NCBI RefSeq assembly: GCF_001677475.2
Contig: NZ_CP015229.1
From: Escherichia coli
GTDB taxonomy: Bacteria; Pseudomonadota; Gammaproteobacteria; Enterobacterales; Enterobacteriaceae
Direction: 5' to 3' (one strand)
Length of the DNA: 64,000 nucleotides
Positions 16,950 through 59,176 of the stretch are shown in pieces. Position numbers and translations under genes: made by a program. Positions within the stretch are counted from its first letter, which is position 1. Every line of letters begins with the position of its first letter. A model generated the notes under the pieces. It did no database searches. It was given only the letters and a program-made list of their open reading frames with translations, and had not been told where the DNA came from.

Positions 16950-17008
16950 CGTTAAACGTCCATGTATGAAAAAAGCGGCTGGTTAACTCCGCGCCGCTCT
17001 TTTCCGCT

Positions 17009-24914: not shown

Positions 24915-25007
24915 TCTGACCTTCTTCAGCGACTGCCTTTCATGCAGTCGCTGAAGTTTCTTTACCGGCGTATAGTGTCCACAGGAAAACTACACACTGG
25001 ATCTCAC

Positions 25008-25446
25008 ATGTCTGCCGCAGGAAAGAGCAACCCACTGGCAATCAGTGGCCTGGTTGTGCTCACACTTATCTGGAGTTATAGCTGGATTTTCATGAAGCAA
25101 GTCACCAGCTACATCGGTGCCTTCGACTTCACCGCCTTACGCTGCATTTTCGGCGCTCTCGTTTTATTCATCGTCCTTTTATTACGTGGTCGCGGAATGC
25201 GCCCGACGCCGTTTAAATACACCTTAGCCATCGCCCTGTTACAAACCTGTGGGATGGTTGGCCTGGCGCAGTGGGCGCTGGTCAGCGGCGGAGCGGGGAA
25301 GGTGGCGATCCTGAGCTATACCATGCCGTTCTGGGTGGTGATTTTCGCCGCGTTGTTTCTCGGTGAACGCCTGCGACGTGGGCAATATTTCGCGATAATG
25401 ATTGCCGCTTTCGGCTTATTTTTGGTGTTGCAGCCGTGGCAACTCG
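25008..25446 (+). pseudogene. yijE: yijE 5' fragment (codons 1-146 of a 301-aa EamA/DMT transporter), truncated by IS insertion
   Basis: [22 protein letters not shown]...LVLQPWQL then frame enters the IS and stops after 1 codon; 146 + 155 native codons = 301, the K-12 YijE length. Confidence 0.85.
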
Positions 25447-25539
25447 TATGAGACGACAATAACTCAGTCCGCCTGGCGCCGATTATTCTGGCCGGTTTTG
25501 TAACCTGAGTGTCATTTACATGATCCAACAGGAAATGGC

Positions 25540-27039
25540 GTGACGCTCAATACTTCTCAGGTCAGTTACTATATGACTCAGCGTAAGAAAGGTATAACTC
25601 AGCATATCTCGGCCATGAAGGCTGGTATCTCAGTCCGTTCTGGTCGTCGGATCGAAAAAGGAGAGTGGGCAAAAAACAGTGTTCGGCACTGGCGCACACG
25701 CAAAGATCCTCTGGAAGCTGTGTGGGACAGCATGCTTGTTCCTCTGTTGAAAGAGAGGCCGGCTCTGACACCAACAACTCTACTGGAGATGCTACAGGAT
25801 AAATATCCCGGCCAGTACCCCAACAGCCTTCGAAGAACAATGCAACGGCGGGTTCGCGAATGGAAACTACAGTATGGTACAGAGCAGGAGGTCATGTTCC
25901 GCCAGCAACATCAGCCCGGCCTGCGAGGCCTGTCGGACTTTACTGAACTGAAAGGTGTAGTTGTCACCATCGCCGGTAAGTTGTTGGCGCATAAGTTGTA
26001 TCACTTCCGTCTGGAATGGAGCCACTGGAGCTGGATGCGGGTTGTTCTGGGTGGTGAGAGCTTCTCTGCTCTGGCTGAAGGCCTGCAGGAAGCCCTCGGA
26101 CAACTGGGCGGAGTGCCGGTAGAACATAAAACGGACAGCCTGAGGGCAGCATGGAAACAACAGGGCGAAGATGGACGCCGCGAGCTGACTGAGCGTTATG
26201 CTACTCTCTGTCAGCACTACGGAATGCAGGGCGTACACAATAATGCCGGTCGGGGCCACGAAAATGGCTCGGTTGAAAGTGCCCACGGACATCTGAAAAG
26301 GCGTATCTGTCAGGCGCTGATACTGCGGGGCAGTAACGACTTCAGCACCATAGAAGAATATCAGGCCTTCATCACTCAGCAGGTTATGCGGCACAACCGT
26401 AACAATCAGGATCTGGTCAAGGAAGAACGTCTTCATCTGAAACCGCTGCCGCTTCGTCGCAGTGCTGACTATGATGAGCTGACTGTGAGGGTTAGTCGCA
26501 GCAGTACCATCAATGTGAAGCACGTCGTCTACAGCGTACCTTCCCGGCTTGTAGGTCAACTGTTACGGGTCAGGTTATGGGACGATCGTCTGAGCTGTTA
26601 CGTTGGCAGCAGCGAGGTCATGAGCTGCCCTCGCGTCAGACCAGAAAAAGGGAAGACGCGGGCCCGTCGTATCGACTTCCGACATGTGATCGACAGTCTG
26701 GCAAAAAAGCCCGGTGCGTTCTGCCATGCAACGCTGAGAAATGACATCCTGCCGGACGATGAATGGCGGAGGCTGTGGCGTCGCTTATGTAATCATCTGG
26801 AGCCCGATATGGCAGGAAGGCTGATGGTACATGCCCTGAAACTGGCTGCAGGATACGACGATATCTCAGTCGTGGCAAAAGGTATGGAGCAGATGCTGAA
26901 TACCCCGGGAAACGTGGATCTGCACCGGCTGATGCGCTTCCTGGGTATAAAAGAAAAGGCGTTGCCGGTAGTCAATGTGATACAGCATAACCTGAGCAGT
27001 TATGAGCAACTACTGCGTGGCAAGGGAGGTTCGCAGTGA
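25540..27039 (+). CDS. istA: IS21-family transposase IstA (up to 499 aa; start uncertain, GTG at 25540 or ATG at 25573)
   Basis: N-terminal HTH-like region, central DDE-type integrase-like region, C-terminal extension; followed by overlapping istB. Confidence 0.8.
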   Translation: MTLNTSQVSYYMTQRKKGITQHISAMKAGISVRSGRRIEKGEWAKNSVRHWRTRKDPLEAVWDSMLVPLLKERPALTPTTLLEMLQDKYPGQYPNSLRRTMQRRVREWKLQYGTEQEVMFRQQHQPGLRGLSDFTELKGVVVTIAGKLLAHKLYHFRLEWSHWSWMRVVLGGESFSALAEGLQEALGQLGGVPVEHKTDSLRAAWKQQGEDGRRELTERYATLCQHYGMQGVHNNAGRGHENGSVESAHGHLKRRICQALILRGSNDFSTIEEYQAFITQQVMRHNRNNQDLVKEERLHLKPLPLRRSADYDELTVRVSRSSTINVKHVVYSVPSRLVGQLLRVRLWDDRLSCYVGSSEVMSCPRVRPEKGKTRARRIDFRHVIDSLAKKPGAFCHATLRNDILPDDEWRRLWRRLCNHLEPDMAGRLMVHALKLAAGYDDISVVAKGMEQMLNTPGNVDLHRLMRFLGIKEKALPVVNVIQHNLSSYEQLLRGKGGSQ

Positions 27040-27791
27040 GCAATATCCATCACCTTGAACATAGCCTGCGTAAACTACGCCTGACACGAGTTGGAGCTGA
27101 ATGGCACGCTCTGGAAAAACGAGCGCTGGCAGAAGGCTGGACACCATCGCGCTATCTTCTGACGCTATGCAATGAAGAACTCCTGTGGCGCGAGAGTGAA
27201 AAACTGCGTCGTTATAAAAAGGAGGCCCGGTTGCCAGTTGCCAAAACGCTGAGCGAATACGACTTCAGTCAGGTGCCGGAACTGAATGGAGCTCAGTTCC
27301 GGCAACTCTGTGAAACGACAGACTGGGTTGATGCAGGAGAAAACGTTCTGCTGTTCGGAGCCAGCGGGTTGGGGAAAAGCCATCTGGCGGCAGCGATCGT
27401 GGATGGCGTAGTAGGTCAGGGCTACCGGGCCCGGTTCTACAGCGCAGGAGAGCTGTTGCAGGAACTACGTAAAGCCAGAGCTCAGTTGAAACTGAATGAG
27501 CTGCTACTGAAACTGGATCGCTACCGGGTGATAGTGGTGGATGATCTTGGCTATGTAAAACGCGATAGTGCCGAAACGGGTGTGCTGTTCGAGTTAATAG
27601 CGCATCGCTATGAACGTGGGAGCCTGGTGATAACCAGTAACCATCCGTTCAGCATGTGGGGCAGCATCTTCGTGGATGAGACTATGGCGGTGGCTGCGGC
27701 AGACAGGCTGATCCATCACGGATATATGTTCGAACTGAAAGGGGAAAGCTACAGGAAAAAGACAGCGAAGGCAGTAACAAGCGCGACTTGA
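27036..27791 (+). CDS. istB: IS21-family helper ATPase IstB (251 aa, GTG start overlapping istA stop)
   Basis: Walker A GASGLGKSH and Walker B VIVVDDLGY (AAA+/DnaC-like); GGAGG RBS at 27025-27029; GTG at 27036 overlaps TGA of istA. Confidence 0.85.
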   Translation: MSNIHHLEHSLRKLRLTRVGAEWHALEKRALAEGWTPSRYLLTLCNEELLWRESEKLRRYKKEARLPVAKTLSEYDFSQVPELNGAQFRQLCETTDWVDAGENVLLFGASGLGKSHLAAAIVDGVVGQGYRARFYSAGELLQELRKARAQLKLNELLLKLDRYRVIVVDDLGYVKRDSAETGVLFELIAHRYERGSLVITSNHPFSMWGSIFVDETMAVAAADRLIHHGYMFELKGESYRKKTAKAVTSAT

Positions 27792-27856
27792 TGTCGCCCT
27801 GAAGGGTGCGGCCAGTATAGTTGGCGCGAGTCGGCAAAACTAGTTGACGTCTAATA

Positions 27857-28329
27857 AACTCGATTTTTCTTCGATGAAAAGTGCCATGCTGGCAATCCTC
27901 TCCGGTGTTAGTTGGGGGGCGAGCGCGATTGTTGCTAAACGTCTGTATGCCCGTCATCCGCGCGTGGATTTATTGTCGTTAACATCCTGGCAGATGCTCT
28001 ATGCGGCGCTGGTGATGAGTGTGGTCGCTTTACTGGTGCCGCAACGTGAAATTGACTGGCAGCCCACCGTGTTCTGGGCGCTGGCCTACAGTGCGATTCT
28101 GGCGACGGCGCTGGCGTGGAGCTTATGGCTGTTTGTGCTGAAAAACTTGCCTGCCAGTATTGCCAGCTTAAGCACACTGGCCGTTCCCGTTTGCGGCGTA
28201 CTCTTTTCCTGGTGGCTGCTCGGTGAGAATCCGGGGGCCGTTGAAGGTAGCGGTATTGTGCTGATTGTGCTGGCACTGGCGCTGGTGAGCCGTAAGAAAA
28301 AAGAAGCCGTCAGTGTAAAAAGGATCTGA
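27857..28329 (+). pseudogene. yijE: yijE 3' fragment (codons 147-301), separated from the 5' fragment by the IS
   Basis: Frame [20 protein letters not shown]...[10 protein letters not shown] continues the EamA-domain transporter; first two codons derive from the target-site duplication. Confidence 0.85.
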
Positions 28330-44348: not shown

Positions 44349-44676
44349 ATTACCCCAGACACCCCATCTTATCGTTTGATAGCCCTGTATCCTTCACGTC
44401 GCATTGGCGCGAATATGCTCGGGCTTTGCTTTTCGTCGTCTTTTATAAAGCCACGTAAAAGCGGTGACGTCAAATGCTGCGAAATCGCTTCAGCAAACGA
44501 ATAAATAGCAGGAATTTACGTCATTAAATTCACGACGCTTTAAATAAGCGTAACTTATGGGAATGTTAAAAAATCGCCTCAAGTAACACCAAAGAGTTAT
44601 GAGTTGTAGTTACCATTTGGGCAATCATCTGAGATTGCTGACAAACTCGTTTACGGGTCAGTATGGGCACGGTTTT

Positions 44677-44716
44677 CCCCTCACCCTAACCCTCTCCCCG
44701 AAGGGGCGAGGGGACT
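44677..44716. repeat. GC-rich imperfect palindromic element in ppc-argE intergenic region
   Basis: cccctcaccctaaccctctcccc-gaa-ggggcgaggggac; stem cctctcccc / ggggcgagg; resembles a dispersed E. coli intergenic repeat family, exact family not assigned. Confidence 0.45.
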
Positions 44717-44760
44717 GTCCGTGCGCTTGCATGGCTTTGTCATCAGCCTGATTTGCTTTT

Positions 44761-47914: not shown

Positions 47915-49288
47915 ATGGCACTTTGGGGCGGGCGTTTTACCCAGGCAGCAGATCAACGGTTCAAACAATTCAACGACTCACTGCGTTTTGATTACCGTCT
48001 GGCGGAGCAGGATATTGTTGGCTCTGTGGCCTGGTCCAAAGCCCTGGTAACGGTCGGTGTGCTGACCGCAGAAGAACAGGCGCAACTGGAAGAGGCGCTG
48101 AACGTGCTGCTGGAAGATGTTCGCGCCAGGCCACAACAAATCCTTGAAAGCGACGCCGAAGATATCCATAGCTGGGTGGAAGGCAAACTGATCGACAAAG
48201 TGGGTCAGTTAGGCAAAAAACTGCACACCGGGCGTAGCCGTAATGATCAGGTAGCGACTGACCTGAAACTGTGGTGCAAAGATACCGTTAGCGAGTTGCT
48301 GACGGCTAACCGGCAGCTGCAATCGGCGCTGGTGGAAACCGCACAAAACAATCAGGACGCGGTAATGCCAGGTTACACTCACCTGCAACGCGCCCAGCCG
48401 GTGACGTTCGCTCACTGGTGTCTGGCGTATGTTGAGATGCTGGCGCGCGATGAAAGCCGTTTGCAGGATGCGCTTAAGCGTCTGGATGTCAGCCCGCTAG
48501 GCTGTGGCGCGCTGGCGGGAACAGCCTATGAAATCGACCGTGAACAGTTAGCAGGCTGGCTGGGCTTTGCTTCGGCGACCCGTAACAGTCTCGACAGCGT
48601 TTCTGACCGTGACCACGTGCTGGAACTGCTTTCTGCTGCCGCTATCGGCATGGTGCATCTGTCGCGTTTTGCTGAAGACCTGATCTTCTTTAACACCGGC
48701 GAGGCGGGGTTTGTGGAGCTTTCTGACCGCGTGACTTCCGGTTCATCATTAATGCCGCAGAAGAAAAATCCGGATGCGCTGGAGCTGATTCGCGGTAAAT
48801 GCGGTCGGGTGCAGGGTGCGTTAACCGGCATGATGATGACGCTGAAAGGTTTGCCGCTGGCTTACAACAAAGATATGCAGGAAGACAAAGAAGGTCTGTT
48901 CGACGCGCTCGATACCTGGCTGGACTGCCTGCATATGGCGGCGCTGGTGCTGGACGGCATTCAGGTGAAACGTCCGCGTTGCCAGGAAGCGGCTCAGCAG
49001 GGTTACGCCAACGCCACTGAACTGGCGGATTACCTGGTGGCGAAAGGCGTACCGTTCCGCGAGGCGCACCATATTGTTGGTGAAGCGGTGGTGGAAGCCA
49101 TTCGTCAGGGCAAACCGCTGGAAGATCTGCCACTCAGTGAGTTGCAGAAATTCAGTCAGGTGATTGACGAAGATGTCTATCCGATTCTGTCGCTGCAATC
49201 GTGCCTCGACAAGCGTGCGGCAAAAGGCGGCGTCTCACCGCAGCAGGTGGCGCAGGCGATTGCTTTTGCGCAGGCGCGGTTGGGGTAA
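47915..49288 (+). CDS. argH: Argininosuccinate lyase (457 aa)
   Basis: [26 protein letters not shown]; fumarase/aspartase family signature [12 protein letters not shown]. Confidence 0.96.
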
Positions 49289-49312
49289 GAACATTTATAT
49301 GTACAAATTTGA

Positions 49313-49338
49313 GCCTGGCTTATCGCCGGGCTTTTTTA
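49313..49338 (+). terminator. Rho-independent terminator of argCBH
   Basis: gcctggc-ttatc-gccgggc hairpin followed by ttttttat. Confidence 0.7.
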
Positions 49339-49339
49339 T

Positions 49340-49459
49340 GGCAAAAAAAAGCGGATCCTGGAGATCCGCAAAAGTTCACGTTGGCTTTAGTTATTCGAGT
49401 TGAGAAACTCTCGAAACGGGCAGTGACTTCAAGGGTTAAAAGAGGTGCCGCTCCGTTTC
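49340..49459 (-). ncRNA. oxyS: OxyS small regulatory RNA (oxidative-stress sRNA)
   Basis: Minus-strand sequence GAAACGGAGCGGCACCUCUUUUAACCCUUGAAGUCACUGCCCGUUUCGAGAG...GCGGAUCUCCAGGAUCCGCUUUUUUUUGCC matches OxyS as recalled; terminal hairpin plus U8; divergent from oxyR. Confidence 0.9.
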
Positions 49460-49554
49460 TGTGAGCAATTATCAGTCAGAATGCTTGATAGGGATAATCG
49501 TTCGTTGCTATGCTACCTATCGCCGCGAACTATCGTGGCAATGGAGGATGGATA
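49460..49554. promoter_or_regulatory. oxyR-oxyS divergent promoter / OxyR binding region
   Basis: Intergenic region between oxyS 5' end and oxyR ATG; established OxyR autoregulatory site location; individual ATAG-type repeats not mapped here. Confidence 0.55.
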
Positions 49555-50472
49555 ATGAATATTCGTGATCTTGAGTACCTGGTGGCATTGGCCGAACACC
49601 GCCATTTTCGGCGTGCGGCAGATTCCTGCCACGTTAGCCAGCCGACGCTTAGCGGCCAAATTCGTAAGCTGGAAGATGAGCTGGGCGTGATGTTGCTGGA
49701 GCGGACCAGCCGTAAAGTGTTGTTCACCCAGGCGGGAATGCTGCTGGTGGATCAGGCGCGTACCGTGCTGCGTGAGGTGAAAGTCCTTAAAGAGATGGCA
49801 AGCCAGCAGGGCGAGACGATGTCCGGACCGCTGCATATTGGTTTGATTCCTACGGTTGGACCGTACCTGCTACCGCATATTATCCCGATGCTGCACCAGA
49901 CATTTCCAAAGCTGGAAATGTATCTGCATGAAGCACAGACCCACCAGTTACTGGCGCAACTGGACAGCGGCAAACTCGATTGCGTGATCCTCGCGCTGGT
50001 GAAAGAGAGCGAAGCATTCATTGAAGTGCCGTTGTTTGATGAGCCAATGTTGCTGGCTATCTATGAAGATCACCCGTGGGCGAACCGCGAATGCGTACCG
50101 ATGGCCGATCTGGCAGGGGAAAAACTGCTGATGCTGGAAGATGGTCACTGTTTGCGCGATCAGGCAATGGGTTTCTGTTTTGAAGCCGGGGCGGATGAAG
50201 ATACACACTTCCGCGCGACCAGCCTGGAGACGCTGCGCAACATGGTGGCGGCAGGTAGCGGGATCACTTTACTGCCAGCGCTGGCTGTGCCGCCGGAGCG
50301 CAAACGCGATGGGGTTGTTTATCTGCCGTGCATTAAGCCGGAACCACGCCGCACTATTGGCCTGGTTTATCGTCCTGGCTCACCGCTGCGCAGCCGCTAT
50401 GAGCAGCTGGCAGAGGCCATCCGCGCAAGAATGGATGGCCATTTCGATAAAGTGTTAAAACAGGCGGTTTAA
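49555..50472 (+). CDS. oxyR: LysR-family hydrogen-peroxide sensor/regulator OxyR (305 aa)
   Basis: [44 protein letters not shown]; Cys199/Cys208 region present (DGHCLRD ... FCFEAG). Confidence 0.96.
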
Positions 50473-51855
50473 ACCGTTTAACGCAGCTACCCGATAGGCT
50501 TCCGCCATGGTCGGGTAGTTAAAGGTGGTGTTGACGAAGTACTCAATAGTGTTGCCGCCACCTTTCTGTTCCATAATCGCCTGACCGATATGAATAATTT
50601 CGGCAGCGCGCTCGCCAAAGCAGTGAATACCCAGAATCTCTTTTGTTTCCCGATGGAACAAAATTTTCAGCGTGCCCACGTTCATGCCGACGATTTGTGC
50701 ACGTGCCAGATGTTTAAACTGGGCGCGGCCCACTTCATATGGCACTTTCATCGCGGTCAGCTGCTGTTCGGTTTTGCCCACAGAGCTGATTTCCGGGATG
50801 GTGTAAATGCCGGTAGGGATATCTTCAATCAGATGCGCGGTGGCTTCGCCTTTTACCAGCGCCTGCGCGGCAATGCGCCCCTGGTCATAGGCCGCTGATG
50901 CCAGGCTCGGATAACCAATCACGTCGCCCACCGCGTAAACGTGCGGCTGTGCGGTCTGATACATGCTGTTGACCTTCAGCTGTCCGCGACTGTCAGTTTC
51001 CAGCCCAATGTTCTGTAACGCCAGCGAATCGGTATTACCGGTACGACCGTTGGCATAGAGCAGGCAGTCAGCTTTCAGTTTTTTACCCGACTTCAGATGC
51101 ATGATCACACCGTCGTCACAGCCTTCGATCTTCTCGTACTCTTCGTTGTGACGAATCACTACGCCACTGTTCCAGAAGTGATAGGAGAGAGAATCTGACA
51201 TCTCTTGATCGAGAAATGCCAGCAGGCGATCGCGGGTGTTGATCAGATCCACTTTTACATCCATACCGCGGAAGATCGACGCATATTCACAGCCGATCAC
51301 TCCAGCACCATAGATAAGTACATGGCGCGGTTCGTGGTGCATGCTGAGAATTGAGTCGCTGTCGTAAATGCGTGGATGGGTGAAATCAACATCTGTTGGA
51401 TGATATGGACGAGAGCCGCAGGCAATAACAAATTTTTCAGCGGTTAGCGTTTCAACGCTGCCGTCCGGGCAATCCAGCGCCAACGTATGCTCGTCAACAA
51501 AGCGAGCGTTCCCCTGCAATATTTCACAGTGATTACGTTCGTAAAATCCCTGACGCATGCGCGTTTGTTGATTAATCACGTTATCGGCATGGTTAAGGAT
51601 ATCGGCAAAAGAAGAGCGGAGCAGTCGGGAATGGTCGCTGTATAGTGGGTTTTGATTGAATTCTATAATGCGGCTGACGGCGTGACGGAGAGCTTTCGAC
51701 GGGATGGTGCCCCAGTGGGTGCAACCGCCGCCAACATTTTGATAACGCTCGATAACTGCGACGCGCGCACCTTGCTTAACCAGGCCCATTGCAGCGCCTT
51801 CGCCGCCGGGGCCGGAACCTATTACTATGGCATCGTAATCGTAGGAATGTGGCAT
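50455..51855 (-). CDS. sthA: Soluble pyridine nucleotide transhydrogenase (466 aa)
   Basis: [28 protein letters not shown]-binding N-terminus; 3' end overlaps oxyR 3' end convergently by 18 nt. Confidence 0.95.
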
Positions 51856-52184
51856 GGTAGGGCTTACCTGTTCTTATACATAAAAGCAACAGAATGGTAA
51901 CATTTTATCGCGGGTAAGCCAATTGATCCCCGTCATTAATCTGGCTATAGCGTGAGCGGCCTTTGCTTTGTCTGCCCCCTTCTTAACCCATTTATTTACT
52001 ATTAATCGCTTTTTCTTATGGCTGATAGTTTTATCTTGCCGAAGCGTGCTTTTTTGTTATTGTCTTTATGAAATATTCTTATAAAACAAACATATAAATA
52101 TTTTATATTGATGAGTTATTTGTATTTATACCATCAATAAAATCCGTTAATTAGCCTGTTTATAAGTGAATAAAGGAATAGCCG

Positions 52185-53351
52185 ATGATCGAACACTATA
52201 TTCGAGGGTTTGAGGAAGAACTGCGTGAGATCCGCCATCAGATCCACGAAAACCCGGAGCTGGGATTACAAGAATTTAAAACCAGTGCTTTGGTGGCGGA
52301 AAAGCTGCGTCAGTGGGGCTATGAAGTAGAGCAAGGACTGGCGACGACGGGGATAGTGGCCACGTTAAAAGTGGGCGACGGAGAGAAAAGTATTGGCCTG
52401 CGGGCGGATATGGATGCGCTGCCAATTTATGAAAATAGTGGCAAGCCCTGGGCCAGTAAACATCCTGGTTTAATGCACGCCTGCGGGCATGACGGGCATA
52501 CCACCATACTGCTGGGGGCCGCGCGTTATTTTGCCGAAACCCGCCGTTTTAACGGCACGTTACGTCTTATCTTCCAGCCTGCGGAAGAGATGATTAACGG
52601 CGGTGAGATCATGGTTAAAGAGGGGCTTTTTGATCATTTCCCCTGCGATGTCATTTTCGGCATGCATAACATGCCCGGTCTGCCGGTGGGTAAGTTTTAT
52701 TTCCAGCCAGGGGAACTGATGGCGTCAATGGATCAGTTCCATATTACAGTTCGTGGTTGTGGCGGACACGGTGCGATCCCGCACAAAGCCATCGATCCGG
52801 TGCTGGTTGCCGCACATATCACCACCGCATTACAAAGCATTGTGTCGCGCAATGTCGATCCGCTGGAAGCGGCGGTAATTACCGTCGGCAGCATTGTTGC
52901 GGGTGAGGCGGCTAACGTCATTCCTGACAGTGCTGAGATGAAAATCAGCGTCCGCTCTCTTAGCCGCGATACCCGACAACTTCTTCTGACCCGTATTCCT
53001 GCTCTGGCACAAACCCAGGCTGCCAGCTTTGGTGCTACGGCTGAGGTTACGCATGTTAACGGTACACCGGTATTAGTGAATGACGAGGAGATGGCGCGCT
53101 TCGCCTGGCAGGTGGCGTGTAAAACGTTTGGTGAAGATCGGGCCGAGTTTGGCATCAAGCCCCTGATGGGCAGTGAGGATTTCTCTTTCATGCTGGAAGC
53201 CCAGCCGAAAGGCGCTTTTTTGCTGTTCGGTAATGGCGATGTCGGGGAAGGTTCCTGCATGGTGCATAACCCGGGTTACGACTTCAACGATGCAAGTCTG
53301 GTCCCGGCATGCAGCTACTGGGGCGCACTGGTAGAAGCTTGGCTGCAATAA
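52185..53351 (+). CDS. M20D-family amidohydrolase (hippurate hydrolase / N-acyl-amino-acid amidohydrolase-like), 388 aa; accessory gene not in K-12
   Basis: Metal-binding motifs typical of M20D enzymes (HACGHDGH, ...GEE...); GGAA RBS-like upstream; no paralogue recalled at this locus in K-12. Confidence 0.8.
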   Translation: MIEHYIRGFEEELREIRHQIHENPELGLQEFKTSALVAEKLRQWGYEVEQGLATTGIVATLKVGDGEKSIGLRADMDALPIYENSGKPWASKHPGLMHACGHDGHTTILLGAARYFAETRRFNGTLRLIFQPAEEMINGGEIMVKEGLFDHFPCDVIFGMHNMPGLPVGKFYFQPGELMASMDQFHITVRGCGGHGAIPHKAIDPVLVAAHITTALQSIVSRNVDPLEAAVITVGSIVAGEAANVIPDSAEMKISVRSLSRDTRQLLLTRIPALAQTQAASFGATAEVTHVNGTPVLVNDEEMARFAWQVACKTFGEDRAEFGIKPLMGSEDFSFMLEAQPKGAFLLFGNGDVGEGSCMVHNPGYDFNDASLVPACSYWGALVEAWLQ

Positions 53352-53393
53352 ATAAAACAACACACAACAACACTTTTTGGCAAGGAACATGGA

Positions 53394-54710
53394 ATGACGG
53401 CGATCGTAAATGAAACCGTGAGTGTGAAGAAAAAGCCCAGCGGTAAGCGGGTGATTTTTGCTTCGGCGTTTGGCAATGCGCTCGAATTTTTTGATTTTGG
53501 CGTTTACAACTTTTTTGTGGTCTATATCAGTACGCTTTTCTTCCCACCCAGCGCTGATCACAATGTCGCGCTGTTACTGGCATTTGCAACATTTGGCGTG
53601 AGTTTTTTTATGCGCCCGCTTGGTGGAATTATCGTCGGGGCCTGGGCCGATCGCTTCGGACGCAAACCCGCGATGGTGTTCACCATTGCCCTGATGAGCC
53701 TCGGTACACTGATGATCGGCATCGCACCGACGTATGAAACGGCGGGCTATTGGGGAACCGCGACGCTGGTGCTGGCGCGTCTAATTCAGGGCGTTGCGGC
53801 AGGAGGCGAAGTCGGTGCCTCAATGTCTTTGTTGGTTGAATCAGCTCCGGCAAATCGTCGCGGCTTTTACAGCAGTTGGTCACTGGCGACTCAAGGCCTG
53901 GCAACAACCTTTGGTGGTGTTGTCGCTTTAGGTTTAAGCGCATGGCTGCCCTTTGCGACAGGTTCAGAAACCGTAATGGCTGAATGGGGCTGGCGTGTGC
54001 CATTTTTTATTGGCGTGTTATTAGCACCTATCGGTTGCTGGTTGCGTCTGAGCCTGGAAAATGACGTACCTGAGCTAGTGCGCAATAAAAAAGCTGCTAC
54101 CAGCGAAAGCGCGTTCTCTCTGCTCCTGCAACATAAGGCGACTATCGTTAACGGCGTTTTACTCGCTATTGGTAGCACGGTCGCAACCTATATCTCCCTC
54201 TTTTATTACGGCACCTGGGCGGCGAAGTATCTGGCGATGCCTCAACATTATTCTCATGCAGCGATGTTACTGGCGGGCGTTATTACGTTTGTGGGTGCGC
54301 TGCTTGTGGGGATGTTGTGCGATTCGGTCGGGCGTAAAAAGCTGATTTTAATCTCCCGTGTGATGGTGCTGATCTGTAGCTGGCCGTCATTCTGGCTGTT
54401 GGTGAATTACCCAAGCCCTGGCATGTTGCTGACGGTGGTTTTCGTGATGGTCAGCTTTACCACGCTTGGCGGTGTGCCGGTAATGTTGCTGATCTCTGAA
54501 CTGTTGCCGAAACGGATTCGGGCATTGGGTTTTGCGCTGGTTTATAGCATTGGTGTGGCAATCTTTGGCGGTTTTGCTCAATATTTCGCTACGCAATCCA
54601 TCGTGTTGCTGGATAGTTTGACAGCTCCGGCGTGGTATTTGGGTGGAGGCACGTTGCTGTCGATGCTGGCGTTGTTGTACGTAAAAGAACCGGCCAAAGA
54701 ATTGCAGTAA
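53394..54710 (+). CDS. MFS transporter, metabolite:H+ symporter (MHS) family-like (438 aa); accessory gene not in K-12
   Basis: ~12 predicted hydrophobic helices; MFS loop motif [10 protein letters not shown]; MHS-like signatures [26 protein letters not shown] (compare ProP/KgtP/ShiA). Confidence 0.8.
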
Positions 54711-54759
54711 ATATGTTTTATTGCGTTACCGTTCATTCACAATACTGGAGCAATCCAGT

Positions 54760-55464
54760 ATGTTCATTCTCTGGTATAGTGCCAGCAGTACTTTTGGCAA
54801 GGATTCAGACATCGTGATGGGCGTAAGAGCGCAACAAAAAGAAAAAACCCGCCGTTCGCTGGTGGAAGCCGCATTTAGCCAATTAAGTGCTGAACGCAGC
54901 TTCGCCAGCCTGAGTTTGCGTGAAGTGGCGCGTGAAGCGGGCATTGCTCCCACCTCTTTTTACCGGCATTTCCGCGACGTAGACGAACTTGGTCTGACCA
55001 TGGTTGATGAGAGCGGTTTGATGCTGCGCCAACTCATGCGCCAGGCGCGTCAGCGTATTGCCAAAGGCGGGAGTGTGATCCGTACCTCGGTCTCCACATT
55101 TATGGAGTTCATCGGTAATAATCCGAACGCCTTCCGGTTATTATTGCGGGAACGCTCCGGCACTTCCGCTGCGTTTCGTGCCGCCGTTGCGCGTGAAATT
55201 CAGCACTTCATTGCGGAACTTGCGGACTATCTGGAACTCGAAAACCACATGCCTCGTGCGTTTACTGAAGCGCAAGCCGAAGCCATGGTGACGATTGTCT
55301 TCAGTGCGGGTGCCGAGGCGTTGGACGTCGGCGTCGAACAACGTCGGCAATTAGAAGAGCGACTGGTACTGCAACTGCGAATGATTTCGAAAGGGGCTTA
55401 TTACTGGTATCGCCGTGAACAAGAGAAAACCGCAACTATTCCGGGAAATGTGAAGGACGAGTAA
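54760..55464 (+). CDS. fabR: TetR-family repressor of unsaturated fatty acid synthesis FabR (234 aa by K-12 annotation; alternative ATG at 54817 gives 215 aa)
   Basis: ...[52 protein letters not shown] TetR HTH; GGAG RBS 9 nt upstream of ATG 54760. Confidence 0.88.
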
Positions 55465-55823
55465 TGAAACAAGCAAATCAAGATAGAGGTACGCTGCTGC
55501 TGGCGTTGGTTGCTGGCTTATCGATTAATGGTACTTTCGCAGCTCTGTTTAGCTCCATAGTGCCATTTTCTGTATTCCCGATTATTTCCCTGGTGCTGAC
55601 GGTTTACTGCCTGCATCAACGTTATCTTAATCGCACTATGCCGGTAGGCTTGCCGGGTCTGGCAGCTGCCTGTTTTATTCTCGGCGTACTGCTGTACAGC
55701 ACGGTAGTTCGTGCGGAATATCCGGATATCGGCTCTAACTTCTTCCCGGCAGTACTCTCCGTCATTATGGTGTTCTGGATTGGCGCGAAGATGCGTAACC
55801 GTAAGCAGGAAGTTGCTGAGTAA
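55464..55823 (+). CDS. yijD: DUF1422 inner-membrane protein YijD (119 aa)
   Basis: ORF 119 aa; ATG overlaps fabR stop (TAATG). Confidence 0.88.
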
Positions 55824-55831
55824 TCGGTATC

Positions 55832-55857
55832 ATGCCGGATGCTGGCGCATCCGGCAT
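55832..55857. terminator. Bidirectional hairpin terminator between yijD and trmA
   Basis: atgccggatgc-tggc-gcatccggcat palindrome (REP-like) between convergent genes. Confidence 0.6.
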
Positions 55858-55862
55858 GGGTT

Positions 55863-56963
55863 TTACTTCGCGGTCAGTAATACGCCGCACTCCATATGGT
55901 GCGTGTAGGGGAACTGATCAAACAGAGCCAGACGTTCGACCTTGTGCGTCTGGCTTAATGTTTCCAGATTCTTGCATAACGTTTCCGGATTGCAGGAGAT
56001 ATACAGAATACGTGGATACGCCTGCACCATTTTCTCGGTTTCACTGTCCAGACCGCTGCGCGGTGGGTCGACAAAAATGGTTTCGCACTGATAACTCTTT
56101 AAGTCGATCCCTTGCAGGCGGTTAAACTCGCGCACACCATTCATCGCCTGAGTAAATTCTTCTGCCGCCATACGAATAATTTGTACGTTATCAATATGGT
56201 TAGCGGCAATGTTGTATTGCGCAGCAGCAACCGACGGCTTAGCGATTTCGGTGGCTAATACCCGATCAAAATTGCGCGCCAGTGCTAATGAAAAGTTACC
56301 GTTGCCGCAGTACAGCTCCAGTAAATCGCCTTTTGAGCCTTTGGTTACGTCCAGCGCCCATTCCAGCATCTGAATATTCATCGCCGCGTTCGGCTGGGTA
56401 AAGCTGTTTTCTACCTGACGGTAGATCATCTCTTTCCCTGCGACCGGCAGACGTTCATCGATGTAATCTTGATCCAGCTCGATTTTGGTTTTCGTTGCCC
56501 GACCAATCAGATGCACATTCAGATTCTGCGCTCGCAGTGCATCGCGCAGGGCTTCCGCTTCCTGACGCCACTCATCATCCAGCTTTTTATGGTACAGCAG
56601 GGAAACCACCGCCTGATTACTCAACGTAGTGAGGTAATCAATCTGGAACAACTTGTGGCGCAGAACGGGATTATTACGCACACCCGCAATCATCGCCGTC
56701 ATCAACTGGTTGATGAGTTCACTGGCAGCGGGGAAGCTATCCACGCGGATGCGGCTTTTGGTTTGTTGATCGAAAATGATGTGGTACAGGTCATCGCCAT
56801 CGTGCCAGATGCGGAACTCCGCGCGCATCCGGTAATGACTGACCGGCGAGCGAAACACTTCCGGAACCAGGTCAGAAAACGGTGCCATCATACTTTGCAA
56901 ACGTACCACTTTTTCGGCTAACTGCGCTTCATACTGTTCTGTTGGAAGGTGTTCGGGGGTCAT
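55863..56963 (-). CDS. trmA: tRNA (uracil54-C5)-methyltransferase (366 aa)
   Basis: ORF 366 aa recognised as TrmA ([29 protein letters not shown]). Confidence 0.94.
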
Positions 56964-57090
56964 GATGTATCCTGAAAAATTAAAGTACGCGGCGATTGTA
57001 GGGATTGCTCATCAGATGTCCAGATCTTGATGAATTCCTATTTGTGAGCTACGTCTGGACAGTAACTTGTTACAACCTGTAGCATCCACT

Positions 57091-57331
57091 TGCCGGTCCT
57101 GTGAGTTAATAGGGAATCCAGTGCGAATCTGGAGCTGACGCGCAGCGGTAAGGAAAGGTGCGATGATCGCGTTATGCGGACACTGCCATTCGGTGGGAAG
57201 TCATCATCTCTTAGTATCTTAGATACCCCTCCAAGCCCGAAGACCTGCCGGCCAACGTCGCATCTGGTTCTCATCATCGCGTAATATTGATGAAACCTGC
57301 GGCATCCTTCTTCTATTGTGGATGCTTTACA
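57091..57331 (+). promoter_or_regulatory. btuB 5' leader containing adenosylcobalamin riboswitch
   Basis: Leader matches the btuB riboswitch as recalled (gccggtcctgtgagttaatagggaatccagtgcgaatctggagctgacgcgcagcggtaaggaaaggtgcg...gaagacctgccggcc B12-box region). Confidence 0.85.
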
Positions 57332-59176
57332 ATGATTAAAAAAGCTTCGCTGCTGACGGCGTGTTCTGTCACAGCCTTTTCCGCTTGGGCACAGGATACC
57401 AGCCCGGATACTCTCGTTGTTACTGCTAACCGTTTTGAACAGCCGCGCAGCACTGTGCTTGCACCAACCACCGTTGTGACGCGTCAGGATATCGACCGCT
57501 GGCAGTCGACCTCGGTCAATGATGTGCTGCGCCGTCTCCCTGGTGTGGATATCACCCAAAACGGCGGTTCAGGTCAGCTCTCATCTATTTTTATTCGCGG
57601 TACAAATGCCAGTCATGTGTTGGTGTTAATTGATGGCGTCCGCCTGAATCTGGCGGGGGTGAGTGGTTCTGCTGACCTTAGTCAGTTCCCTATTGCGCTT
57701 GTCCAGCGTGTTGAATATATCCGTGGGCCGCGCTCCGCTGTTTATGGTTCAGATGCAATAGGCGGGGTCGTGAATATCATCACGACGCGCGATCACCCCG
57801 GAACGGAAATTTCAGCAGGGTGGGGAAGCAATAGCTATCAGAACTATGATGTCTCTACACAGCAACAACTGGGGGATAAGACACGGGTAACGCTGTTGGG
57901 CGATTATGCCCATACTCATGGTTATGATGTTGTCGCCTATGGTAATACCGGAACGCAAGCGCAGCCAGATAACGATGGTTTTTTAAGTAAAACGCTTTAT
58001 GGCGCGCTGGAGCATAATTTTACTGATGTCTGGAGCGGCTTTGTGCGCGGCTATGGCTATGATAATCGTACTAATTATGACGCATATTATTCTCCCGGCT
58101 CGCCGCTGGTCGATACACGTAAACTCTATAGCCAAAGTTGGGATGCCGGACTGCGCTATAACGGCGAACTGATTAAATCACAACTCATTACCAGCTACAG
58201 CCATAGCAAAGATTACAACTACGATCCGCATTATGGTCGTTATGATTCGTCCGCGACGCTCGATGAGATGAAACAGTACACCGTCCAGTGGGCAAACAAT
58301 GTCATCGTTGGTCACGGTAGTATTGGTGCGGGTGTCGACTGGCAGAAACAGACTACGACGCCGGGTACAGGTTATGTTGAGGATGGATATGATCAACGTA
58401 ATACCGGCATCTATCTGACCGGGCTGCAACAAGTCGGCGATTTTACCTTTGAAGGCGCAGCACGCAGCGACGATAACTCACAGTTTGGTCGTCATGGAAC
58501 CTGGCAAACCAGCGTCGGTTGGGAATTCATCGAAGGTTATCGGTTTATCGCTTCTTATGGTACGTCGTACAAGGCACCTAATCTTGGGCAACTCTACGGC
58601 TTCTACGGTAATCCGGATCTGAACCCTGAGAAAAGCAAACAGTGGGAAGGGGCGTTTGAAGGCTTAACCGCTGGAGTGAACTGGCGTATTTCCGGATACC
58701 GTAACGATGTTAGTGACTTGATCGATTACGATGATCACACCCTCAAATACTACAATGAAGGGAAAGCGCGAATTAAGGGCGTCGAGGCGACCGCCAATTT
58801 TGATACCGGACCGCTGACGCATACGGTGAGTTATGATTATGTCGATGCGCGTAACGCGATTACCGACACGCCGTTGCTACGTCGCGCTAAACAGCAGGTG
58901 AAATATCAGCTCGACTGGCAACTGTATGACTTCGACTGGGGTATTACTTATCAGTATTTAGGCACTCGCTATGATAAGGATTACTCATCTTATCCTTATC
59001 AAACCGTTAAAATGGGCGGTGTGAGCTTGTGGGATCTTGCGGTTGCGTATCCGGTCACCTCTCACCTGACAGTTCGTGGTAAAATAGCCAACCTGTTCGA
59101 CAAAGATTATGAGACAGTCTATGGCTACCAAACTGCAGGACGGGAATACACCTTGTCTGGCAGCTACACCTTCTGA
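57332..59176 (+). CDS. btuB: TonB-dependent vitamin B12 outer-membrane transporter (614 aa)
   Basis: [38 protein letters not shown] (signal peptide plus TonB box DTLVVTA); C-terminal ...SGSYTF. Confidence 0.96.

Follow-up and report, generated by a model that had tools for sequence, protein, structure and literature searches.

In the 64-kb stretch of E. coli DNA analysed here (the window), an M20 amidohydrolase gene and an MFS symporter gene lie between sthA and fabR (gene order tpiA ... argH-oxyR-sthA-[M20 amidohydrolase, MFS symporter]-fabR-yijD-trmA-btuB), and this locus raises the question of how the two genes are controlled and what the 329 bp in front of them contribute to that control. 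The segment 51856-52184 is the exact spacer from the ATG of sthA (51855, minus strand) to the ATG of the M20 gene (52185). In the initial annotation it was taken for a markedly AT-rich leader of the kind found with horizontally acquired genes, curved and H-NS-bound, which may be silenced in the laboratory until a specific regulator induces the genes, and which also contains the divergent sthA promoter. The features of the spacer and of the gene pair, in the following called the islet, are collected in Table 1.

Table 1. Features of the sthA-M20 spacer and of the adjoining islet, in window coordinates.
Feature	Position	Strand	Basis and remarks
Ancestral sthA 5'UTR and candidate promoter	51856..51925	-	shared with the outgroups Salmonella, Atlantibacter and L091 (a third enterobacterial genome) up to ~51925
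sthA candidate promoter: -35 TTGGCT, 17 bp, -10 TGtTACCAT	-35 51922..51917; -10 51899..51894	-	weight matrix (PWM)
Left end of the Escherichia-specific insertion	51926..51999		47% GC; no outgroup counterpart; most variable block
K-12 deletion breakpoint, left	51974/51975		K-12 alignment
AT-rich tract: proposed promoter-operator of the M20-MFS operon, possibly also its leader	52000..52184	+	composition, conservation
Candidate promoter P1: -35 TTGCCG, 16-bp spacer, extended -10 TGtTATTGT	52036..52063	+	PWM 9.9, 99.996th percentile
Putative TosR (PapB-family) site	52078..52106		published c4924 motif, 1 mismatch in window
Imperfect inverted repeat ATTTTATATTGATG / CATCAATAAAAT	52100..52143		18-bp spacer, 12-14-bp arms, centred around 52122
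Second candidate promoter: TTGATG, 15 bp, TACCAT	52108-52134	+	PWM 8.0
Candidate proximal -10 TAAAAT, weak -35	52138..52143	+	PWM 6.1; presumably activator-dependent type
Shine-Dalgarno AAAGGAA of the M20 gene	52172..52178	+	read from sequence; invariant
M20 amidohydrolase / aminoacylase gene (c4924 / ECs4892 / C_RS23275)	52185..53351	+	Pfam Peptidase_M20 and M20_dimer; TIGR01891 amidohydrolase; RefSeq 'M20 aminoacylase family protein'
MFS metabolite/H+ symporter gene (ECs4893)	53394..54710	+	Pfam MFS_1 and Sugar_tr; TIGR00883 below cut-off
Right end of the ancient insertion	54711..54725		outgroup alignment; ancestral fabR upstream DNA back at ~54726

Composition and layout of the spacer

The AT-richness of the segment was borne out by calculation, as its GC content is 0.337 and thus far below the mean of 0.527 (sd 0.042) of all 329-bp windows, only 0.085% of which are as low, and the lowest 329-bp value of the entire 64 kb (0.322, start at 51874) overlaps the segment. 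Of the 29 intergenic regions with 60 bp or more, it ranks first in AT content, followed by regions with GC contents of 0.372 and 0.374 (median about 0.43), and it also has the highest TpA density of these regions (0.122, runner-up 0.098); its poorest 100 bp have 17% GC, and the next lowest region has 29%. The genes that flank the segment have 52-54% GC. The AT-richness is uneven and confined to positions 52000-52184 with 26% GC (20% at 52060-52160), and the string that had been quoted as its example, tattttatattgatgagttatttgtatttataccatcaataaaatcc, maps to 52099-52145, while positions 51856-51999 have 44% GC, which is ordinary for an intergenic region. The supposed curvature is not predicted: a wedge model gives a mean of 19 degrees per 31 bp, compared to 17 +/- 9 window-wide, with a peak at the 92nd percentile.

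The divergent sthA promoter is indeed expected within the segment, where the best candidate on either strand was found by weight matrix (score 10.9, 99.998th percentile of the window), but this candidate is located in the ancestral 70 bp that are not AT-rich, and hence outside the AT-rich tract. These 70 bp are 100% identical to those of E. albertii, with one variable column in nine aligned sequences. The edge of an ancient insertion (51922-51926) lies directly upstream of the predicted -35, and as the insertion abuts this element, the DNA upstream of the sthA promoter in Escherichia differs from that of Salmonella and other enterobacteria.

In the AT-rich tract, a simple consensus scan for promoters and terminators gave no match, and the promoter candidates of Table 1 were found only with the weight matrix, by which the promoter-like elements of the tract reach at least the 99.9th percentile of the window. 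P1 has the top score of the plus strand and is near-invariant in the nine sequences, apart from one -35 variant in an E. coli strain (L082). No conserved small ORF was found in the tract; a 17-codon ORF at 52018-52071 was considered and rejected, having no Shine-Dalgarno sequence and an ATA in E. albertii in place of its ATG. In strain ZJ3920 (L088), an IS1 element is inserted inside the AT-rich tract at the equivalent of 52135/52136, where it has duplicated the 9-bp target TATACCATC (window 52127-52135); by this insertion the M20 gene is cut off from the putative TosR site and from the promoter candidates further upstream.

Origin of the islet and its loss from K-12

The islet, which extends over about 2.8 kb (~51926-54725), is missing from Salmonella, Atlantibacter and the third enterobacterial genome. 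In all three outgroups sthA and fabR are adjacent, with a spacer of about 195-200 bp to the annotated start of the 211-residue FabR, and as the alignment of these outgroups to E. coli reaches only up to ~51925 and begins again from ~54726, the original insertion comprised these 2.8 kb. The short spacer of K-12 is of a different nature. Its alignment to the window stops at 51974 and is resumed at 54676, and 73 unrelated bp replace 2701 bp in between; on neither strand is this filler (window 51975-54675 equivalent; positions 2911-2983 of the K-12 locus, L001) significantly similar to the islet. What K-12 has retained of the islet is about 49 bp on the left side and about 50 bp on the right; the right-hand remnant comprises the final 35 bp of the MFS ORF, which encode a KE motif that can be aligned to the conserved C-terminal end of homologues. 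As both ends of the islet are retained, the short spacer between sthA and fabR in K-12 is the scar of a deletion, and the islet is missing there by loss and not because O157 gained it.

Complete E. coli genomes have essentially two alleles at this locus, the short form (3912) and the islet (1507), and the AT-rich tract was seen only at the sthA-M20 locus when 5426 E. coli genomes were compared, 1507 of which have it; c4924/ECs4892 is accordingly carried by about 28% of the complete genomes, including O157:H7, O55:H7, ST131 and CFT073. Among the complete E. coli assemblies, two matches of the tract come from records that are labelled as plasmids. There are further differences from K-12 in the window, namely in the yiiX-metJ spacer (16950-17008; 59 bp vs 183 bp in K-12) and in the ppc-argE spacer (44349-44760; 412 bp vs 597 bp). 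The gene of the EamA-family exporter YijE is split by an IS21-family element (~25450-27856, with an IstA-like ORF at 25540-27039 and IstB at 27036-27791) into a 5' part (24942-25451) and a 3' part (27857-28329).

E. albertii (L003) has the islet in the same synteny. The four-fold divergence between E. coli and E. albertii is 0.22 for the M20 gene and 0.345 for the MFS gene, and since the flanking core genes span values of 0.14-0.385, which include both, the cassette predates the split of the two species. The claim of a horizontal acquisition therefore holds with regard to the foreign origin of the islet, which is absent from the three outgroups and has its best M20 homologues beyond Escherichia in Betaproteobacteria (up to 63% identity), but not with regard to a recent arrival, as the divergence is core-like and the coding GC of 52-54% (GC3 0.57) is like that of the host. 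The MFS gene of the window (53394-54710) is 91.9% identical to that of DSM 103246, where the neighbouring M20 gene has 98.4%, and relative to O157 the values are 94.3% and 97.9%; this lower identity of the MFS gene indicates a mosaic and suggests recombination inside the islet. The 42-bp spacer between the two genes (53352-53393) is 100% identical in all four loci compared (E. albertii L003 and E. coli L087, L002 and L082).

The M20-MFS pair is found also in nine of the homologue loci that were compared (Burkholderia, Paraburkholderia, Pseudomonas and others), and in four of these nine a divergent LysR regulator gene is encoded upstream of the pair. Such cassettes of the Burkholderiales and relatives have the same two genes in the same order, with 44-36% identity for the MFS protein and about 50-57% for the M20 protein, and the spacer next to their divergent LysR gene has 53-117 bp at 41-59% GC; the LysR / M20 / MFS cassettes are comparable to abgR-abgABT of E. 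coli K-12. In Escherichia, by contrast, sthA holds the position of the LysR gene and a tract of 26% GC lies in the spacer; the islet contains no regulator gene, and no remnant of a LysR gene was found when it was sought in the sthA-M20 spacer. As Escherichia is without the divergent LysR that homologous cassettes have, host factors must control the operon.

Induction by TosR and the question of H-NS binding

Information on this control comes from the UPEC strain CFT073, in which overproduction of TosR raised c4924 transcripts with a log2FC of 6.6 (about 100-fold; FDR 6.1e-19) in an RNA-seq experiment, placing it fifth in a list of the 25 genes most upregulated, beside several fimbrial operons (PMC5956150). 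TosR is an AT-tract binder of the PapB family and a predicted antagonist of H-NS and Lrp, and a putative TosR motif of c4924, CTTATAAAACAAATATATAAATATTTTAT, is given 78 bp upstream of the ATG (Table S2 of PMC5956150). This motif is little beyond an AT-rich pattern. In the 64-kb window its three best matches and 9 of the 13 matches with up to 6 mismatches start within 52072-52100. The putative TosR site precedes the proximal TAAAAT -10 by 32-60 bp, and because of this arrangement the weak proximal promoter would be the likeliest regulated start. The response to TosR shows that expression of the operon is low at the basal level and high when induced, but being an effect of overexpression it may be indirect; in the case of the auf operon, the authors themselves left it undecided whether TosR acts directly or indirectly (PMC5956150). 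TosR is present in a minority of strains only and therefore cannot be the conserved regulator. In O157 Sakai, ECs4893 was up by 2.09 (units not checked) at the transition to stationary phase, so that the operon is not fully silent. The expectation of a leader that is silenced in the laboratory and induced by a regulator is thus in line with the TosR response, but the silence is not complete. A literature search by the locus tags of the islet gave nothing relevant beyond these TosR and growth-phase data.

As to H-NS, a binding of the tract is plausible by analogy with its neighbours. The only other 329-bp stretches of the window with up to 37% GC are in the yiiR-yiiS and metF-katG spacers, and both were found to be H-NS-bound by ChAP-seq in three E. 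coli strains; five other spacers of the window, which are less rich in AT, were scored as unbound (Higashi 2016; PMC4720273). The supplements of that study cover conserved genes and spacers only, hence not the islet spacer, but that comparably AT-rich spacers of the same window are bound supports H-NS binding of the tract. The two spacers (GC 0.374 for yiiR-yiiS and 0.372 for metF-katG) are the next most AT-rich ones after the tract and likewise lie upstream of genes, but they are spacers of the core genome whose lowest 100 bp have 29-32% GC as compared to 17%, and their H-NS binding is measured, that of the tract taken from analogy.

A coating of the whole islet is another matter. In CFT073, the portion of the published ChIP-seq list of H-NS-bound genes that surrounds this locus has c4920/c4921 followed by coaA, and sthA and both islet genes are not among the genes of that portion (PMC9765446). 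By the procedure described there, the list scores gene bodies only and deliberately ignores promoters (PMC9765446); it counts against an H-NS filament over the islet. The genes c4920 and c4921, both listed as H-NS-bound in that portion (PMC9765446), form a small islet of manD and an MFS transporter gene between argH and oxyR in B2 strains (L085, L086, L093); the argH-oxyR spacer of the window (49289-49554) has 266 bp with oxyS and without the manD-MFS islet.

Taken as a whole, the tract resembles the H-NS-silenced and counter-silenced promoters of the type of pap/PapB, tos/TosR, LEE1/Ler, bgl and proU, as it is likewise short, has high AT and TpA contents, lies upstream of lineage-specific genes, and combines low basal expression with a strong induction by an AT-tract binder of the PapB family. 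It differs from them in that the islet gene bodies have a host-like GC content and, in the portion of the CFT073 list just mentioned, are not given as H-NS-bound, that no curvature is predicted, and that the tract is near-invariant instead of fast-evolving.

Conservation of the tract and the readings it allows

All nine aligned spacer sequences have 329 bp, with zero indels. Most of the polymorphism of the spacer is found in 51926-51999, where 13 of 74 columns are variable and the identity to E. albertii is 83.8%, whereas 52000-52092 (28% GC) is 93.5% identical and 52093-52184 (24% GC) is 100% identical, with one A/G polymorphism among the nine sequences. In this last block of 92 bp, about 27 substitutions relative to E. 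albertii would be expected at the neutral rate (pooled four-fold divergence 0.294), and 0 are observed (binomial P ~1e-14). Due to the near-zero number of substitutions and the constant length, the AT-rich tract must be under strong purifying selection and is no passive foreign relic; judged by sequence comparison, it is far too conserved for mere foreign AT-rich DNA. The AT-richness can thus hardly be a functionless leftover, be it of a foreign origin or of a bias in mutation, although the islet is foreign and AT-rich DNA attracts insertion elements such as the IS1 of ZJ3920. The coding parts of the islet match the GC content of the host, and a spacer without selection would be expected to have drifted as well.

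H-NS-bound upstream spacers are said to evolve faster than unbound ones (PMC4720273), so that nucleoid-protein binding alone does not explain the extreme conservation of the tract, and this keeps two further explanations alive. It is possible, although doubtful, that the tract is chiefly the operator of a sequence-specific host regulator that has been kept across Escherichia and replaces the lost LysR, in which case the operon would be off for lack of the inducer, and AT-richness and nucleoid proteins would be secondary. This would agree with the near-absolute conservation of the 92 bp across the split of E. coli and E. albertii, where an H-NS-bound spacer would normally have diverged faster, with the LysR control of homologous cassettes, and with an enrichment of inverted repeats: there are 8 perfect 7-bp repeats (spacer up to 30) in the tract as compared to 1.7 +/- 1.8 in dinucleotide shuffles, 0.8% of which reach 8, and the long imperfect dyad is invariant in the nine sequences apart from the A/G at 52114. 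However, the spacing of 18 bp in this dyad is atypical of known dimeric regulators, neither a regulator gene nor a LysR remnant is left in the islet and its spacer, and the sole documented inducer, TosR, is a generic AT-tract binder. Moreover, none of 20 consensus sequences (CRP, FNR, Lrp, IHF, ArcA, Fur, ArgR, Nac, PhoB, OmpR, sigma-54, Fis, LysR box, TyrR, Cra, GcvA, MetR, H-NS motif, Zur, DnaA) matched the tract better than dinucleotide shuffles; the best match to the LysR-type T-N11-A dyad, with 1 mismatch, was equalled by shuffles, and the high-affinity motif of H-NS itself is not enriched either. A start at P1 (predicted at ~52070) would yield an AU-rich leader of about 115 nt, and the invariant sequence could then be conserved because it acts as RNA, by binding small RNAs or Hfq, in ribosome loading or in the control by RNase E. 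P1 is the best-scoring and a conserved plus-strand promoter, and the invariant block continues unbroken up to the Shine-Dalgarno sequence and the ATG, but such a leader is quite improbable, as the fold of 52070-52200 is no better than that of shuffles (z = -0.23), Rfam at E <= 1 has no RNA family in the spacer (its matches in 49000-58000 are OxyS and the cobalamin riboswitch alone), and P1 would have the putative TosR site on its downstream side, a poor arrangement for an activation; a test for covariation would need sequence variation, of which there is none. Both thoughts meet in the view that an Escherichia-wide regulator recognises the invariant block 52093-52184 and its long imperfect dyad, either as a specific operator or in the form of an RNA-level leader, the cassette having been rewired to this host factor after the loss of its LysR. 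This view is unlikely, but it would explain why a tract that looks like an H-NS target has been frozen over the divergence of E. coli and E. albertii.

The explanation that probably applies is a promoter-operator of the M20-MFS operon at which AT-tract nucleoid proteins keep expression off, until a counter-silencer or an activator opens it. The 329-bp interval would then be a composite divergent control region, the first 70 bp of which are the ancestral promoter and 5'UTR of sthA. The M20-MFS cassette of about 2.8 kb came into the spacer between sthA and fabR in an ancestor that E. coli and E. albertii share, just upstream of the predicted sthA -35, and the tract 52000-52184 would serve as promoter-operator of the operon, with weak or activator-dependent sigma-70 elements embedded in DNA of the type that is bound by H-NS, StpA and Lrp. 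In ordinary culture the operon would be kept low, on entry into stationary phase it would rise modestly, and counter-silencers or activators that bind AT tracts would switch it on strongly.

The tract is thus an ordinary and well-known kind of regulatory element, a promoter region that is silenced or depends on an activator. Its conservation is higher than would be expected, and unusually so for DNA that resembles an H-NS target. Three points of annotation can be corrected: the sthA-fabR spacer of K-12 is a deletion scar and not the ancestral state, the DNA upstream of sthA in Escherichia is unlike that of other enterobacteria, and c4924/ECs4892 is a strongly inducible gene. For Escherichia, the locus would be a small and clean example of how an old foreign cassette without a regulator of its own has come under the control of the host by way of a single short AT-rich tract.
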